The notes beneath the pieces are model-generated. The model saw only the letters and a program-made list of their open reading frames with translations. It was not told the origin of the DNA and did no database searches. This document shows, piece by piece, positions 20,526 through 29,673 of a DNA stretch of 64,000 nt (position 1 is the stretch's first letter; each line of letters starts with the position of its first letter). Source of the DNA: Terriglobia bacterium (GTDB lineage Bacteria > Acidobacteriota > Terriglobia > Terriglobales > Acidobacteriaceae); the NCBI GenBank assembly GCA_963802575.1, contig CAWDJF010000001.1, forward strand, positions 111,321 to 175,320, read 5' to 3'. The translations under genes and the position numbers were made by a program.

Positions 20526-20681
20526 AACGTGATTTTAGAAGTGTACGCGAAACTATAGTGGGGAAAGAAATCATGTCCCGACGGCCGCCTTCGGCTGTCC
20601 CCGAGGCAATAAGTCGCGGCACGTAGTCATCAAAGATGCGGGAAGCGTAAAATCTGAAGCCGCGTCGTGACGGAGAGCAAA

Positions 20682-21503
20682 ATGAACGCGCCGCAAGACT
20701 CCCCGCAAAGAGCGGGACTGAGCGATGCGCTGGCCGCCGAGCGAACCTTCCTCGCATGGATTCGCACCGGCCTCGCGCTCATGGGCTTCGGCTTCGTGGT
20801 CGCGCGCTTCGGCCTGTTTTTGAAGCAACTGCAGTTTCTCCAGCACGGCGCTACGGACCCGTCTTACGGGCTGTCGCTCTGGTTCGGAACCGCGCTCATC
20901 GTGGCGGGCGTCACCGTAAATCTTTTTTCCGCCTGGCATCATTTTCGCCTGATGCGACAGCTGGAGCAGGGAGGGCCCATCCCTTCTCGTCCTTCTACCG
21001 AAGCCATTCTGGTCGCGCTGTTTCTCGCTTTGACCGGAATCGCGATGGCCATCTACCTGATCTCCACCCGCGGCACGACAACTTCCAACAACCGTCAGGA
21101 GGTTTCAATGTCCCCCGCTATCAACAGAGGCATAATCGACAAACCCAGCAATCATTCAGTCGACCAGACCGTAGAGCGGCTCAAAGGCATCCTTCAATCC
21201 AAGAGCGTTACCCTGTTCGCCGTAGTCGATCACAGCGGAGAAGCCGAAAAGGTGGGGATGAAAATGCCTCCGACCAAGCTGTTCATCTTCGGCAATCCGA
21301 AAGCCGGAACTCCGCTGATGCTGGCCTCGCCCAGCACCGCGATCGATCTTCCGCTAAAAATCTTGGTCTGGGAAGATGTGCAGGGAAAAGTCTGGATCAG
21401 CTACAACAGTCCGGCCTACTTGCAGGAGCGGCACAATCTGCCAGCGGAGCTGCTGCCAAACATCGCGGTCGTCGAAACTCTGGCGGCCAAGGCTGCAGAA
21501 TAA
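20682..21503 (+). CDS. DUF202 (YidH-like membrane) - DUF302 fusion protein
   Basis: N-terminus LAAERTFLAWIRTGLALMGFGFVVARF plus two more TM helices; C-terminus VDQTVERLKGILQSKSVTLFAVVDHSGEAEKVGM.MPPTKLFIFGNPKAGTPLM...IDLPLKILVWED..GKVWISYNSP. Confidence 0.7.
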   Translation: MNAPQDSPQRAGLSDALAAERTFLAWIRTGLALMGFGFVVARFGLFLKQLQFLQHGATDPSYGLSLWFGTALIVAGVTVNLFSAWHHFRLMRQLEQGGPIPSRPSTEAILVALFLALTGIAMAIYLISTRGTTTSNNRQEVSMSPAINRGIIDKPSNHSVDQTVERLKGILQSKSVTLFAVVDHSGEAEKVGMKMPPTKLFIFGNPKAGTPLMLASPSTAIDLPLKILVWEDVQGKVWISYNSPAYLQERHNLPAELLPNIAVVETLAAKAAE

Positions 21504-21544: not shown

Positions 21545-22126
21545 ATGCAAACTATGGATGGCACCGTCTCATCGCCGCTGCGCGTGATTTTTGGCCGCCT
21601 TTCGATTGTTGTCGGTAACCTAGTGCAGGTCGCTGGCTTAGCGGGCGCTTGTTTCGCCCTGACGGCGGCGCGGTATGCCCATTCGATCATAGGCGCTGCG
21701 GTCGCGATGATCGTCGGTTGGGCTCTTCTCTATTTTTTCTGTCACGCGATTGCCCATTGGTTGGTAGGACGAATTCTTGGCATCCGGTTCGCCTTCTACA
21801 CGGTGGGTGGAACCGGGAACCCGGAAGGTTATCCCGTTGGACTCCGCTGGCTGTTCGAACATCTGCCGTTTTTCGGAGTGCAGACCGAGAAAGGTTCGAT
21901 GCAGAGCGCCAGCCCCAAAGCCAAGGCGATCATGTGGTCAGCGGGAGTGACGTCTTCTGCCGTAGTCCCGACTTTGGGTGTGCTCTGGGCGTGGCACGCG
22001 GGAATCCCCGGGAGTAAGTTGTTCCTTCTATTCGCGCTGGGGTGGGCAGCTGGAACCTTGGCGAGCAACTGGAGAAGCGCTACTGGAGACTATTCCAAAG
22101 CCCGACGCGCCCTAAGAGGTCAGTAA
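21545..22126 (+). CDS. Hypothetical polytopic membrane protein
   Basis: Several hydrophobic helices; no recognisable motif. Confidence 0.45.
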   Translation: MQTMDGTVSSPLRVIFGRLSIVVGNLVQVAGLAGACFALTAARYAHSIIGAAVAMIVGWALLYFFCHAIAHWLVGRILGIRFAFYTVGGTGNPEGYPVGLRWLFEHLPFFGVQTEKGSMQSASPKAKAIMWSAGVTSSAVVPTLGVLWAWHAGIPGSKLFLLFALGWAAGTLASNWRSATGDYSKARRALRGQ

Positions 22127-22243
22127 GCGGCACCCCGGATGCGATGCTGCAACCGGGTCGATCTAGGCAGAAACCTTGTGCGTTCGGACTGCAAGGCGTT
22201 ACAGTAGCGGCGGAATTCCAAACTGAAAGCGACGGCCCCATTG

Positions 22244-23551
22244 ATGCCCTCGGTAAGAGCTAAGCGCCTCGTTTTGCTTCTGCTAGTTTTCTTTTTTCCT
22301 GCCTCCCTCGCGTCAGCTGGACAGAACCGTGCGACAAGCGAGCGATCGTGGTCCGGCACGCTGGTATCGAGCGCCTGCAACGCGGACGAAGCTTTCAACG
22401 AAGCCCCCGCATGCAGCAAGACCATTTCAGGTGCGAAGGTAGCGCTCTACGACGACACTACTCGCGTCATGTACGACCTCGAGCCGCAGTCGAGAGTCAC
22501 CGGGCACCTCGGCGACTCAGTCACCGTCCGAGGCGTACTCGATGAGGATACGATTCATCTGATTTCCATCGAGCCCATGTCAATTGGGCTCGCCGTCGGT
22601 CAGAAGGCTCCCGCGTTCTCGATGATTGACCAGTTCGGCCACATCCAAACTCTCGATTCATTGAAGGGGAGTAAGGGCACGGTCCTTCTCTTTTTCCGTT
22701 CCGCCGACTGGTGACCGTTCTGCAAAGGGCAGCTGGTCCAGCTGCAGAGCGCCGTTCCGCGATTCGAGAAACAAGGGCTGAAGCTCGCTGCGATCAGCTA
22801 CGACTCGGAAGAGATACTGAAATTCTTTGCCGACGCTCACAAGATCGACTACCCGATGCTCGGGGATCCCGACTCGAAGACGATCAAGGCCTATGGTGTC
22901 TTTAATGCTGAAGCGACAGGGATGCAGAAGGGCTTCGCTCGTCCGGGATATTTCTTCATCGATGCCAAGGGCATGATTCGAGAAAAATTCTTCGAAGCAA
23001 AATACCGAGAGCGGCTCACGGGAAACAGCATCATCGCCAAACTTTTCCCGGAGCTCGGCCAGGAAGTTACCGACACGGTCGACGCTCCGAATCTCCAACT
23101 GGCCCTGGAACAATCCGATCGCGTTGCGGTTCCGGGCACCCGCGTCACCCTCGCCGCCGAGGTTCGCCTGCCTCCGGACGTGCACGTCTACGCGCCGGGC
23201 GCAGAAGGCTATAAGCCGATCAAGCTGACCATCGATCCCGTTGCTCAATTGGAATTCAAGCCGGCAGTCTTTCCGCCATCGCAAATCTTGTATATGCCCG
23301 CAATCAAGGAGAAGGTCCCCGTCTTCGAAGGAACCTTCCGCATCACGCAGGACGTGAAGGTCAGTACTACCGCCGACTTCTGGAGTTCGCTCGGGAAAGA
23401 CGGCAAGGTCTTGGAGATTTCAGGCAAGCTCGACTACCAGGCCTGCAACCAGACCGAGTGTTTCCTGCCGAAATCCATCCCGGTGAAATGGCAGTTGCAG
23501 GTTCTTCCGCTGGACCGCACCCGCGCTCCGGAGGAGATTCGCCACAAATAA
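22244..23551 (+). CDS. Secreted peroxiredoxin-like (AhpC/TSA-redoxin) / DsbD-alpha-like fusion with in-frame TGA (22712-22714) at the first redox Cys: candidate selenoprotein (W-U-P-F-C)
   Basis: ORFs 22241-22714 and 22856-23551 are in the same frame with no other stop between them; readthrough gives VLLFFRSADW[TGA]PFCKGQLVQLQ...AISYDS...YPMLGDP...YGV; C-terminal domain ends with YQACNQTECFLP; signal peptide ...FPASLASA. Confidence 0.65.
22729..22745 (+). promoter_or_regulatory. Candidate bacterial SECIS hairpin GCAGCU-GGUCC-AGCUGC, 14 nt downstream of the UGA
   Basis: Perfectly complementary arms; the apical GGUC resembles the E. coli fdhF SECIS apical loop (UGCA-GGUC-UGCA), where the loop G and U contact SelB. 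Confidence 0.5.
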
Positions 23552-24854: not shown

Positions 24855-25352
24855 CTACTCATGCTCCGTCTTCCCACCCAATAACTGCAATGCATGTGGC
24901 AGCAACTCCACCACCGCTTCCAGCGATTCCACCGCCCCTTTAGGACTTCCGGGCACATTCAGGATGATCGACTCCCCTTTCACCCCGCATAGCCCGCGGC
25001 TCAACGCCGCAAAGGGAGTCTTCTTCGAGCCCTCGAGCCGCATGCGCTCTGCCACGCCTTCGAGTAGGCGATCGCACACCGCGCGCGTCGCCTCCGGAGT
25101 CACATCCCGCTTCGCGATTCCCGTTCCTCCCGTGGTCACCACCAGCCGCGCTTGCGACGCCAGTTTTACGATCACGGCTGCAATCGCAGTCCGTTCGTCG
25201 GGCACTACCTCGCGCGCCACCACCTGGAAATTGTTTCTGGAAAGAACCTCGGCAACGGCGGGCCCGGAAAGATCTTCGCGTTCGCCGCGCGAGGAAGAAT
25301 CACTGACAGTGAGAACCGCTGCGGTGAAAGCCTCAGGTGTCGAGGAGGACAT
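24855..25352 (-). CDS. mogA: Molybdopterin adenylyltransferase MogA/MoaB family
   Basis: AAVLTVSDSSSRGERED.SGP......VVTTGGTGIAKRDVTPEAT......PGSPKGAVE; the start overlaps the upstream gene by 20 nt, with GGAGGAAG as RBS. Confidence 0.85.
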   Translation of the reverse strand: MSSSTPEAFTAAVLTVSDSSSRGEREDLSGPAVAEVLSRNNFQVVAREVVPDERTAIAAVIVKLASQARLVVTTGGTGIAKRDVTPEATRAVCDRLLEGVAERMRLEGSKKTPFAALSRGLCGVKGESIILNVPGSPKGAVESLEAVVELLPHALQLLGGKTEHE

Positions 25353-28413: not shown

Positions 28414-29673
28414 CTATCGCCTTAAGACCGCGACCCACTCGCCCGCCGGAATCCTCTCCCGATCTGGCGGAATTACGATGTACGCATTTGCTCGCGCCGT
28501 GGACGCGATATCCCCCGAGCCCTCCCACCGCGCCAGTTCCACTTCGGCGTGCTCGAATTCTCCGGATAGTATGGCCGGCAGAAATCTCTTCAATCCAGTC
28601 TTGGTTTTGATGTCGGATTTCAATCGCGCATGCAGGAATATCAGCTTGCGCGCCGTCATGCCCGCCAGCGCCTCCAGCATCGGCCGCGCGAACAACTCAA
28701 AAGTCACCATCGTTGACACTGGATTTCCCGGCAGTCCAAAGAAATAAGTAGCGTCGGCGTCCCCGCCGGTCGGAATGCGCCCGAAGACGATGGGTTTCCC
28801 CGGCTGAATGCGCGCCCCGGTAAAAAAGAACTCTGCCCCGAACTCCGCCAGCACCTGCTCGACGAGGTCATACTTTCCCATCGACACCCCACCGGTGAGC
28901 AGCAACAAATCCGACTCCAACCCATCCGCGATCAACTCCCGCAATCGTAGAGACTCATCGCGCGCAATGGGCAACAGCACCGGCTCTCCCCCGGCTTCTT
29001 TGATCTGCGCCGCCAGCGAATAACTGTTGGAATTGCGGATCTGGTTCGGTCCCGGGGGAACTTCAATCTCCACCAACTCATCCCCAGTCGAAAGCACCGC
29101 CACTTGCGGTTTCGAGTACACCAACAGATGCGATCTTCCCACCGATACCGCAACCGCGACCGCCGCGTGATCCAGTCGCATCCCCGGCTCCAGCAGTTTC
29201 TGTCCCCGCTTCGCCTCTGACCCGACAGGTACGACGTTGTCTCCCGCACCAACGCCGCGGGTGACCGAAACCCTGTTCCCCTCGCGCGAGGTGAACTCAA
29301 CCATCACGATCGCGTCGACACCCTCAGGGGCAGGCGCTCCTGTCATGATCGATGCCGCCTGTCCCGGTCCCACACGAATCGCCGACTCGACTAACGACGC
29401 TCCTGCCTTGATCTCGCCAACCACCTCAAGCGTAGTGGGAAGGTGTGTCAGGTCTGCTGCGCGCAGCGCATATCCGTCGCGCGTAGCTCGACGGAAAGGA
29501 GGGAAGTTGCGGTCGGCCACGACGGGCTCAGCCAAAATCTGCCCGGCAGCGTCTAGCAATTCCACCAACTCTTTGCCATGCGGACGCACTCCCGCCGCGT
29601 GGGTTTCCACTACATGGCGTGCTTCTTCGAAGGTGAGAACAAGATCGGGTTCCGGCAGCGCAGCCATAAGCAC
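28414..29673 (-). CDS. moeA: Molybdopterin molybdotransferase MoeA
   Basis: FPPFRRATRDGYALRA....GEIKAG.......G.A..IMTGAP.PEG.DA.VMVE; STGDELVE...IRNSNSY; LLLTGGVSMGKYD; GLPGNPVS. Confidence 0.88.
   Translation of the reverse strand: MLMAALPEPDLVLTFEEARHVVETHAAGVRPHGKELVELLDAAGQILAEPVVADRNFPPFRRATRDGYALRAADLTHLPTTLEVVGEIKAGASLVESAIRVGPGQAASIMTGAPAPEGVDAIVMVEFTSREGNRVSVTRGVGAGDNVVPVGSEAKRGQKLLEPGMRLDHAAVAVAVSVGRSHLLVYSKPQVAVLSTGDELVEIEVPPGPNQIRNSNSYSLAAQIKEAGGEPVLLPIARDESLRLRELIADGLESDLLLLTGGVSMGKYDLVEQVLAEFGAEFFFTGARIQPGKPIVFGRIPTGGDADATYFFGLPGNPVSTMVTFELFARPMLEALAGMTARKLIFLHARLKSDIKTKTGLKRFLPAILSGEFEHAEVELARWEGSGDIASTARANAYIVIPPDRERIPAGEWVAVLRR

Follow-up and report, generated by a model that had tools for sequence, protein, structure and literature searches.

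An in-frame UGA followed by a SECIS-like hairpin in a predicted exported redoxin/DsbD-alpha-like fusion protein of Terriglobia

In sum, our analysis of 64,000 nucleotides from a Terriglobia bacterium (contig CAWDJF010000001.1, positions 111,321 to 175,320; this whole stretch is called the window below) points to a selenoprotein gene at positions 22244 to 23551 of the plus strand. The in-frame TGA of this gene is almost certainly a genuine selenocysteine (Sec) codon with its own recoding hairpin, a bacterial selenocysteine insertion sequence (SECIS). The best explanation of the whole, to which we assign a probability of about 0.8, is that the UGA is decoded as Sec and that the product is an exported, three-domain periplasmic redox protein in which electrons flow from an alpha-like domain, as known from DsbD, to a redoxin domain. 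The recoding mechanism is canonical; what is new is the fused and exported architecture.

The in-frame UGA and the frame behind it

Translation of the 435 codons revealed one internal stop, the TGA at 22712-22714 (...TVLLFFRSADW-[TGA]-PFCKGQLVQLQSAVPRF...; in short FFRSADW*PFCKGQLVQLQ, with the asterisk for the stop). A first-pass annotation, made from the letters of the window, had named this TGA as the sole in-frame stop and had described a hairpin shortly behind it; position and sequence of both agree with our translation. The open reading frame (ORF) list divides the single frame in two (22241-22714 and 22856-23551), with the TTG at 22241 as an alternative start of the gene, and an in-frame ATG, GTG or TTG is absent between 22715 and 22855 of the window. 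Among the other TGA-split ORFs across the window (at least 90 codons on either side), there was no further credible selenoprotein candidate.

The same codon was followed through two collections of DNA: a scan of Joint Genome Institute (JGI) metagenomes gave 80 loci with 72-79% protein identity to the query, and a scan of 185,579 species-representative genomes gave 80 loci with 70-84% identity (loci are numbered with L and proteins with P). TGA stands at the codon of residue 157 in 80/80 metagenome loci and in 79/80 genome loci, the sole exception being L158 with TCA (Ser). In all 158 complete TGA copies, 277-279 open codons follow the TGA and lead to the same C terminus. The first possible in-frame start past the TGA is unconserved in these copies and lies 7-70 codons downstream; a true termination with a separately made downstream protein, which the first-pass annotation had named as one outcome that would speak against recoding, therefore finds no conserved restart codon. 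Substitutions shortly 3' of the UGA are mostly at third positions, and the Pro codon at +4 to +6, for example, takes all four bases (third base, +6, among distinct sequences: G, 69; C, 54; A, 16; T, 7). Furthermore, TGA is a normal stop in these genomes: of the ORFs with at least 300 amino acids, it closes 220 of 597 from the genome loci and 8 of 32 from the window. A reassignment of TGA (code 4 or 25) was ruled out, since a normal share of long ORFs ends in TGA. Taken together, the TGA in 159 of 160 relatives, the conserved downstream frame and the use of TGA as a normal stop exclude, or make very unlikely, a sequencing error, a pseudogene, a code reassignment and two separate proteins. The earlier judgement that a simple assembly error is less likely is borne out by the same 159 of 160 relatives.

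A protein search covered 5.8 billion proteins. Among the 8000 candidates scored, 1959 matched with E <= 0.001, and the best 120 were listed. These are mostly 425-440 amino acids long with 91-100% query coverage, the named ones come from metagenome-assembled genomes (MAGs) of Acidobacteriota, and full-length homologues have 430-440 amino acids. The column of the UGA holds Cys in 100 of the best 120 homologues (FYRSADWCPYC); the proposal that the UGA occupies the place of the first catalytic Cys was thus correct. W is found in this column in 17 of the 120, and the two that were checked (L164 and L171) have TGA. The 16 closest proteins (68-76% identity), all from short metagenome contigs, have W at the UGA column, or S once and E once. 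For two of the proteins with W, P0016 and P0087 (of which P0087 is not among the 16 closest), translation of their own contigs under the standard code does not return the protein, because the codon is TGA. The W at the Sec column is consistent with gene calling under genetic code 4.

The record titles of the 80 genome loci are nearly all Terriglobia, Acidoferrales, Acidoferrum, Sulfotelmatobacter or Acidobacteria gp2. Eight carrier contigs (L089, L103, L116, L120, L124, L138, L153 and L156) bear the titles Cybelea, Dormiibacterota, Methylomirabilota, Formivibrio, Limnocylindria, Udaeobacter and Alphaproteobacteria; the gene on them, a typically acidobacterial one, has about 72-76% identity, and mis-binning is the likeliest explanation of these titles, rather than horizontal transfer.

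The hairpin downstream of the UGA

The hairpin begins 14 nt past the UGA and its apical loop 20 nt past it. Its energy is -7.7 kcal/mol when written with a 6-bp stem and a 5-nt loop and -9.8 kcal/mol with a 7-bp stem and a 3-nt loop, in which the apical G-C is paired. The bSECIS model, as given in a 2026 review, asks for a loop of 3-9 nt with an upper stem of 4-16 bp, a distance of 16-37 nt from UGA to loop and a minimum free energy of <= -7.5 kcal/mol; a G is expected within the first two bases of the loop, mostly with G or U next to it (PMC13188914). The hairpin of the window agrees with all four of these constraints: the loop GGUCC has 5 nt and opens with GG, the stem has 6 bp, the distance is 20 nt and the energy is -7.7 kcal/mol. 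The likeness of its GGUC loop to the SECIS of Escherichia coli fdhF, which the first-pass annotation had pointed out, was checked on the fdhF sequence: the 43-mer TGACACGGCCCATCGGTTGCAGGTCTGCACCAATCGGTCGGTA is 100% identical within fdhF in >5400 genomes, and its GGUC loop lies 18 nt after the UGA. Both elements are short hairpins inside the ORF whose apical loop starts with GGU(C), at 20 nt here compared to 18 nt in fdhF. In contrast to fdhF and the bSECIS model, the hairpin of the window has a loop of 5 nt (3 nt if the apical G-C pairs), no bulged U and no conserved lower helix; its binding by SelB is predicted.

Taken alone, the hairpin is only moderately unusual with respect to chance, a comparable perfect 6-bp hairpin by the same criteria being found after 16 of the 1927 TGA triplets of the window (0.83%). 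Its significance comes from the comparative data and not from the single sequence. The third positions of the stem (+18, +21, +24, +30 and +33, counting from the U of UGA as 1) are identical in 142-145 of 146 distinct sequences, and the third positions flanking the stem vary freely. At codons +5 to +10 (GQLVQL), the normalised codon entropy drops to 0.137, whereas the gene averages 0.657; of all 6-codon windows across the 241 conserved degenerate codons, none scores lower. Codon bias is no explanation for the low entropy in the stem (0.08-0.14 for Gln and Leu codons), because the same two kinds of codon reach 0.56-0.87 in the remainder of the gene. Covariation was evaluated in an alignment of 123 distinct 54-nt segments with a 7-pair structure, which is paired in 98.7% of the cells. 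Compensatory double changes occur at three pairs (G-C to C-G in L119; G-C to A-U in L123, L147 and L150; C-G to U-A in L069), and 0 of 500 shuffles reach the observed values. A change of CAG to GAG abolishes the apical G-C pair in seven sequences, for which reason GGUCN describes the loop best. An independent RNAalifold run returned the identical 6-bp stem with a 5-nt loop. These data support the view that the hairpin is under selection as RNA and goes together with TGA.

A longer helix (22716-22724 with 22743-22751; CGUUCUGCA with UGCAGAGCG; -18 kcal/mol) can be drawn in the window alone, where it spans the region and would form at the expense of the simple hairpin. As a functional element, it was rejected: it needs CAG at codon +11 (+36), where about two thirds of the relatives have CAA, and it has no RNAalifold support.

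Whether the hairpin co-varies with the TGA was a check proposed in the first-pass annotation, and the two do go together: all six Watson-Crick pairs are present in 117 of 122 distinct TGA forms and in 1 of 9 distinct non-TGA forms, and the GGU loop in 121 of 122 and 3 of 9, respectively. The only non-TGA form with a perfect stem is the TCA (Ser) variant; the other eight non-TGA forms are Cys forms. Because the non-TGA sample is small and its sequences are related, the association is supporting evidence rather than proof. The two Cys forms nearest to the Sec clade (L161, at about 10454, and L173, at about 1078) carry a weakened hairpin, GCAGUU GGUUG AGCUGC, and in a third (L169, at about 10457) the stem is kept with the loop GAUCC. 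The weakened hairpins look like vestiges of a SECIS, which suggests a conversion of Sec to Cys rather than the reverse and hints that Sec may be the older state.

Clustering of the best 120 proteins separates two Sec subclades. The clade of the window has a small Cys clade as its sister (P0017, P0018 and P0025), and a second Sec subclade (P0016, P0087, P0093 and P0111), for two members of which the DNA was also taken, is nearer to the large Cys clade. With the two Sec subclades placed apart, Sec and Cys have been interchanged at least twice. Ser is found at the catalytic position in L158 (10463-10465; Candidatus Sulfotelmatobacter MAG DAIUEW01), in which the perfect SECIS-like hairpin is kept, and in a 17-member protein cluster (P0012); P0013 has Glu there. 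These forms could be recent inactivations, could come from lineages in which Sec decoding was lost or could be errors.

As to the decoding machinery, full-length SelB homologues were found by tblastn with E. coli SelB on four contigs that carry the TGA gene (L102, L146, L074 and L071), in each case 2.5-4 kb upstream of the redoxin gene. In SelB of L102 (5629-7542, minus strand; 637 amino acids), Pfam recognizes GTP_EFTU, the SelB beta-barrel, SelB-wing_2 and SelB-wing_3, each above its cut-off. Hence, at least some carriers encode the Sec-specific elongation factor. Acidobacteria are on record as selenoprotein users with three selenoprotein families (PMC1794560). On the related contigs, selB adjoins pyrF, a DPBB lytic-transglycosylase-like gene and pyrD; selA, selD and tRNA-Sec are not adjacent to it. 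The recoding step is well supported; in it, SelB would be guided by the SECIS hairpin to place Sec at UGA157. What the comparison shows is the conserved recoding signal, and the insertion of Sec is inferred.

A three-domain redox protein

The features of the gene and its predicted product are collected in Table 1. The putative signal peptide has a basic n-region, a hydrophobic core of 10 residues and A-S-A before Gly26; in residues 1-25, read by eye, there is neither a twin-arginine motif nor a lipobox Cys. The N terminus is hydrophobic in all homologues, and residues 1-26 are of low confidence in the AlphaFold2 (AF2) model of P0018, the closest Cys homologue. In the full model of P0018, three soluble domains are seen.

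Table 1. Features of the gene and of its predicted product (positions in the window)
Feature	Position	Strand	Basis or remark
Selenoprotein gene (predicted), complete	22244..23551	+	435 codons including Sec; ATG 22244, stop TAA 23549-23551
Sec codon UGA (almost certain), residue 157	22712..22714	+	TGA in window, 80/80 metagenome and 79/80 genome loci; Cys in 100/120 best homologues
Cys160 codon TGC, putative partner of Sec in UxxC	22721..22723	+	Invariant column; aligned with peroxidatic Cys45 of AhpE
SECIS hairpin (predicted) GCAGCU-GGUCC-AGCUGC, 17 nt	22729..22745	+	Stem 22729-22734/22740-22745, apical loop GGUCC 22735-22739; RNAalifold, covariation, synonymous entropy, bSECIS constraints
Predicted Sec-type signal peptide, residues 1-25, MPSVRAKRLVLLLLVFFFPASLASA / GQ	22244..22318	+	Read from sequence
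N-terminal beta-rich domain, DUF5818-like, with invariant C45 and C57	22328..22585	+	PF19135 sub-threshold; invariant columns
Peroxiredoxin-fold redoxin domain, residues 118-247, U157-P-F-C160	22595..22984	+	PF00578, E 2.9e-30; PF08534, E 3.4e-17
DsbD-alpha-like immunoglobulin-fold domain, residues 289-410	23108..23473	+	PF11412 above cut-off; AF2 fold matches
C401 and C406 in YQAC-NQTE-CFLP	23444-23446, 23459-23461	+	Both invariant

The N-terminal domain resembles PF19135 (DUF5818), which matches 29 of 34 members below its cut-off (best E 7.7e-6), and profile searches of Protein Data Bank (PDB) sequences with alignments of the N- and C-terminal domains gave nothing significant. Pfam was run with Cys substituted for the TGA. 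The central domain combines PF00578 (AhpC-TSA) with the UxxC motif U157-P-F-C160, the combination that marks peroxiredoxin (Prx)-like thiol:disulfide oxidoreductases. No NCBIfam model reached its cut-off, and SelL_rel_redox, PrxU and WAxxUGC_long scored far below. The closest solved structure is AhpE of Mycobacterium tuberculosis, a 1-Cys peroxiredoxin (PDB 1xvw and 5id2; sequence E 1e-14), followed by BCP; fold comparison with the AF2 model of P0018 (mean predicted local distance difference test [pLDDT] of 75.7) gave 35-37% identity and a template modelling (TM) score of 0.85. In the alignment with AhpE, the position of the peroxidatic Cys is kept as Cys160, but the remainder of the canonical Prx signature (PxxxTxxC and a catalytic Arg) is not: Arg152 stands for the Pro and Sec157 for the Thr, one residue is inserted, and Pro234 takes the place of the catalytic Arg116 (with Arg233 adjacent). 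AhpE, moreover, is a cytoplasmic protein with a single domain. The predicted active site is a thioredoxin-type UxxC on a Prx scaffold and not that of a canonical peroxiredoxin, and the earlier description of a peroxiredoxin-like redoxin holds for the fold but not for the active site, with Sec at the Thr and Cys160 at the peroxidatic Cys.

The C-terminal domain had been called DsbD-alpha-like, rightly so: PF11412 (DsbD_N) is matched with 29.9 bits against a cut-off of 25 (E 6.3e-7), the AF2 model of window residues 271-435 has a pLDDT of 86.4 and a predicted TM score (pTM) of 0.78, and each of its 11 best PDB fold matches is a DsbD N-terminal domain or ScsB-alpha (E 2e-5 at best; TM score up to 0.68). 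With DsbD-alpha (PDB 3pfu, 1vrs, 1jzd and 6dnv) and ScsB-alpha (6c29), it shares the immunoglobulin-like fold and a Cys pair in YQxC...C[FY]xP near the C-terminal strands. It differs from DsbD-alpha in its sequence (about 10-14% identity) and in its place at the C terminus of a soluble protein without beta and gamma domains. The Cys pair is spaced C-x4-C here and C-x5-C in E. coli DsbD-alpha. Pfam found no DsbD transmembrane domain, and the membrane beta and thioredoxin-like gamma domains of a full-length DsbD are missing; only the alpha-like domain is common to the protein and DsbD.

By domain and motif, the gene fits the class of Prx-like thiol:disulfide oxidoreductase selenoproteins, which goes back to Kryukov and Gladyshev 2004 (as given in PMC13188914, Table 1, and in PMC1794560). 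An inventory of 119 prokaryotic selenoprotein families includes this class (PF00578; UxxC/UxxU), a Redoxin family protein (PF08534; UxxC) and several Dsb-type families that are presumably periplasmic (PMC13188914). The first-pass annotation had considered an exported selenoprotein unusual; such proteins are uncommon, but predicted periplasmic Dsb-type selenoproteins are catalogued, and so this one is not unprecedented (PMC13188914). In common with the Prx-like selenoproteins are the AhpC/TSA redoxin, the Sec in first position of UxxC, the Cys homologues and the SECIS inside the ORF just 3' of the UGA. The protein differs from them in its length of about 435 amino acids and in its three-domain layout, where a signal peptide and a DUF5818-like domain precede the redoxin and a DsbD-alpha-like domain with a Cys pair of its own follows at the C terminus. 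It also differs in its occurrence, which is in Acidobacteriota (Terriglobia), Deltaproteobacteria being the source of most catalogued members. The fused three-domain exported architecture and the acidobacterial distribution were absent from the inventory (PMC13188914) and from the literature searched.

The nearest precedent from experiments is offered by Caulobacter, in which the DsbD-like ScsB keeps the periplasmic peroxiredoxin PprX (via TlpA) and the Prx-like PrxL reduced; PrxL has two Cys, is without the conserved Prx residues and has no peroxidase activity (PMC3322552). In both cases, exported proteins of the peroxiredoxin fold would be kept reduced via an alpha domain of the DsbD type, which for the protein of the window is a proposal. 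In Caulobacter, the alpha domain is part of ScsB, a membrane protein, and the redoxins are stand-alone Cys proteins; the protein of the window, in contrast, joins the alpha-like domain and the redoxin in one chain, lacks a membrane domain and would use Sec as its nucleophile.

Electron flow, rival readings and meaning for Terriglobia

In our model, the hairpin at 22729-22745 would act as a bacterial SECIS and recruit SelB-GTP-Sec-tRNA(Sec) to the ribosome at the UGA (22712-22714), and the product would be a single precursor of 435 residues instead of a fragment of 156 residues. The precursor would be exported by the Sec pathway, and the mature periplasmic protein would contain three conserved redox pairs, C45/C57, U157/C160 and C401/C406. 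The selenol-thiol pair U157/C160 is the probable catalytic centre with which the fused alpha-like domain may exchange electrons. The alpha-like domain would take electrons from a membrane transporter of the DsbD/ScsB/CcdA type encoded elsewhere and would then reduce the Se-S bond in the redoxin; U157, as a selenolate, may attack an oxidised envelope substrate, be it a peroxide, a protein sulfenate or a disulfide. The whole would be a fused version of the pathway from ScsB-alpha to PrxL/PprX in Caulobacter. Judged from its domains, the protein most probably works in the periplasm as a selenol/thiol reductase that carries its own electron relay.

Several observations weigh against this model. 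The 64-kb window contains neither a SelA, SelB or SelD homologue nor a tRNA-Sec (ARAGORN and Rfam), and in 2.3 Mb of related loci, selA and selD (tblastn with E. coli SelA and SelD as queries) and tRNA-Sec (ARAGORN; Rfam on the four selB loci) were not found either. On the side of the RNA, the fold z-score of the 65-nt segment 22706-22770 against shuffled sequence is 0.06, and Rfam gave no SECIS-type match in 22600-22850 at E <= 10, which is unsurprising for such a short and diverse class; across the window at the gathering threshold, Rfam found only a tRNA-Pro. CAGCTG is self-complementary, so that a QLxQL peptide brings part of the stem for free, and three Cys forms (L161, L173 and L169) retain a stem containing G-U. 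On the side of the protein, the Pro, Thr and Arg positions of Prx are not kept and peroxidase activity is therefore not assured, the inter-domain geometry in the full model of P0018 is uncertain (pTM of 0.51), and no DsbD or CcdA gene or other conserved neighbour accompanies the gene.

Some of these points are shared by a reading in which selenium plays no role: the UGA terminates, or is read through by a near-cognate Trp or Cys tRNA, and the hairpin is a by-product of QLVQLQ and codon bias or a pausing element. It would account for the missing Sec machinery in the window, for the self-complementary CAGCTG, for the stem kept in some Cys forms and for the public annotation as two coding sequences (CDS). 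However, codon bias leaves Gln and Leu codons elsewhere in the gene at an entropy of 0.56-0.87 against 0.08-0.14 in the stem, compensatory double changes exist, and the hairpin is degraded in most Cys forms. The UGA stands exactly at the redox Cys, and SelB is encoded on related contigs. A truncated product, furthermore, would be devoid of C160 and of most of the redoxin fold, and yet the 278 downstream codons are strictly conserved without a conserved restart codon. We regard a role without selenium as very improbable. Practically negligible is the chance that a TGC or TGT was misread as TGA by sequencing or assembly, or that the gene is a recent pseudogene; the codons differ by only one base and other frame breaks were reported in the window, but 159 independent assemblies, which come from many projects and were sequenced on many platforms, have the identical TGA with intact downstream frames.

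A serious rival, although itself rather unlikely, accepts the selenoprotein and reverses the electron flow: the UxxC redoxin would act like DsbD-gamma, would be reduced by a stand-alone CcdA-type protein and would feed the alpha-like domain, which in turn would reduce separate periplasmic partners. The protein would then be the soluble "gamma-alpha" half of a split DsbD. Indeed, electrons in DsbD pass from beta to gamma (thioredoxin fold, CxxC) to alpha, and primitive systems have been proposed in which CcdA reduces an exported thioredoxin-like protein and this protein in turn a free alpha domain (PMC3322552). ResA-type partners of CcdA are among the PDB relatives of the redoxin (E 7e-9), and the fold and the Cys pair of the alpha-like domain are conserved. 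On the other hand, the redoxin is nearest to true peroxiredoxins (AhpE with 35-37% identity, then BCP), which are terminal acceptors, ccdA is not linked to the gene, and the domain order is opposite to that in DsbD. We favour the path from the transporter via the alpha-like domain and the UxxC to the substrate.

The neighbourhood of the gene is variable. Only L081 shares the neighbours of the window, each neighbour family is confined to at most 30 of about 176 loci, and the few clusters above 13 loci may be overlapping-frame ORFs rather than neighbour genes; hence, there is no operon-encoded partner and no linked ccdA or dsbD. Two ORFs upstream lies a fusion gene of DUF202 (membrane) and DUF302 (20667-21503, plus strand), with 21545-22126 in between; this fusion is common only to the syntenic L081 and, weakly, to two other loci. 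Genes for molybdenum cofactor synthesis are located 1.3-6 kb downstream (a MogA/MoaB-like MoCF_biosynth gene at 24855-25352 and moeA at 28414-29673, both on the minus strand). They are of possible interest, since FdhA, the commonest bacterial selenoprotein, is a molybdoenzyme; fdhA was not seen in the window.

The gene is not recognized as one unit in public data. The annotation of the window's own genome lists two CDS of 156 amino acids (22244-22711) and 231 amino acids (22856-23551) on a contig of 399,025 bp, the JGI metagenome relatives are printed with W at the Sec position, and in the NCBI protein P0041 (399 amino acids) about 36 residues around the active site are spliced out. A corrected annotation alters how the redox-enzyme content and the selenium dependence of Terriglobia are read. 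The fusion of a UxxC redoxin with a DsbD-alpha-like domain would be a natural "wired" reducing pathway of the envelope and could be used to study the electron transfer from alpha to redoxin and the kinetic gain of Sec in an oxidising compartment. The protein may plausibly be expressed in E. coli, because the GGUC-type SECIS is nearly as far from the UGA as in fdhF.

In sum, we propose the addition of a widespread selenoprotein to Terriglobia, which are among the most abundant soil bacteria. More speculatively, and with doubts that we do not want to play down, the protein may be a self-contained, selenium-dependent periplasmic relay (be it the "gamma-alpha" half of a split DsbD or a fusion of ScsB-alpha and Prx) in which Sec is ancestral and has been replaced by Cys several times. 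If this is true, the envelope redox defence of an abundant group of soil Acidobacteriota would depend on the selenium supply of the soil, because 79 of the 80 species-level genomes keep the Sec form.

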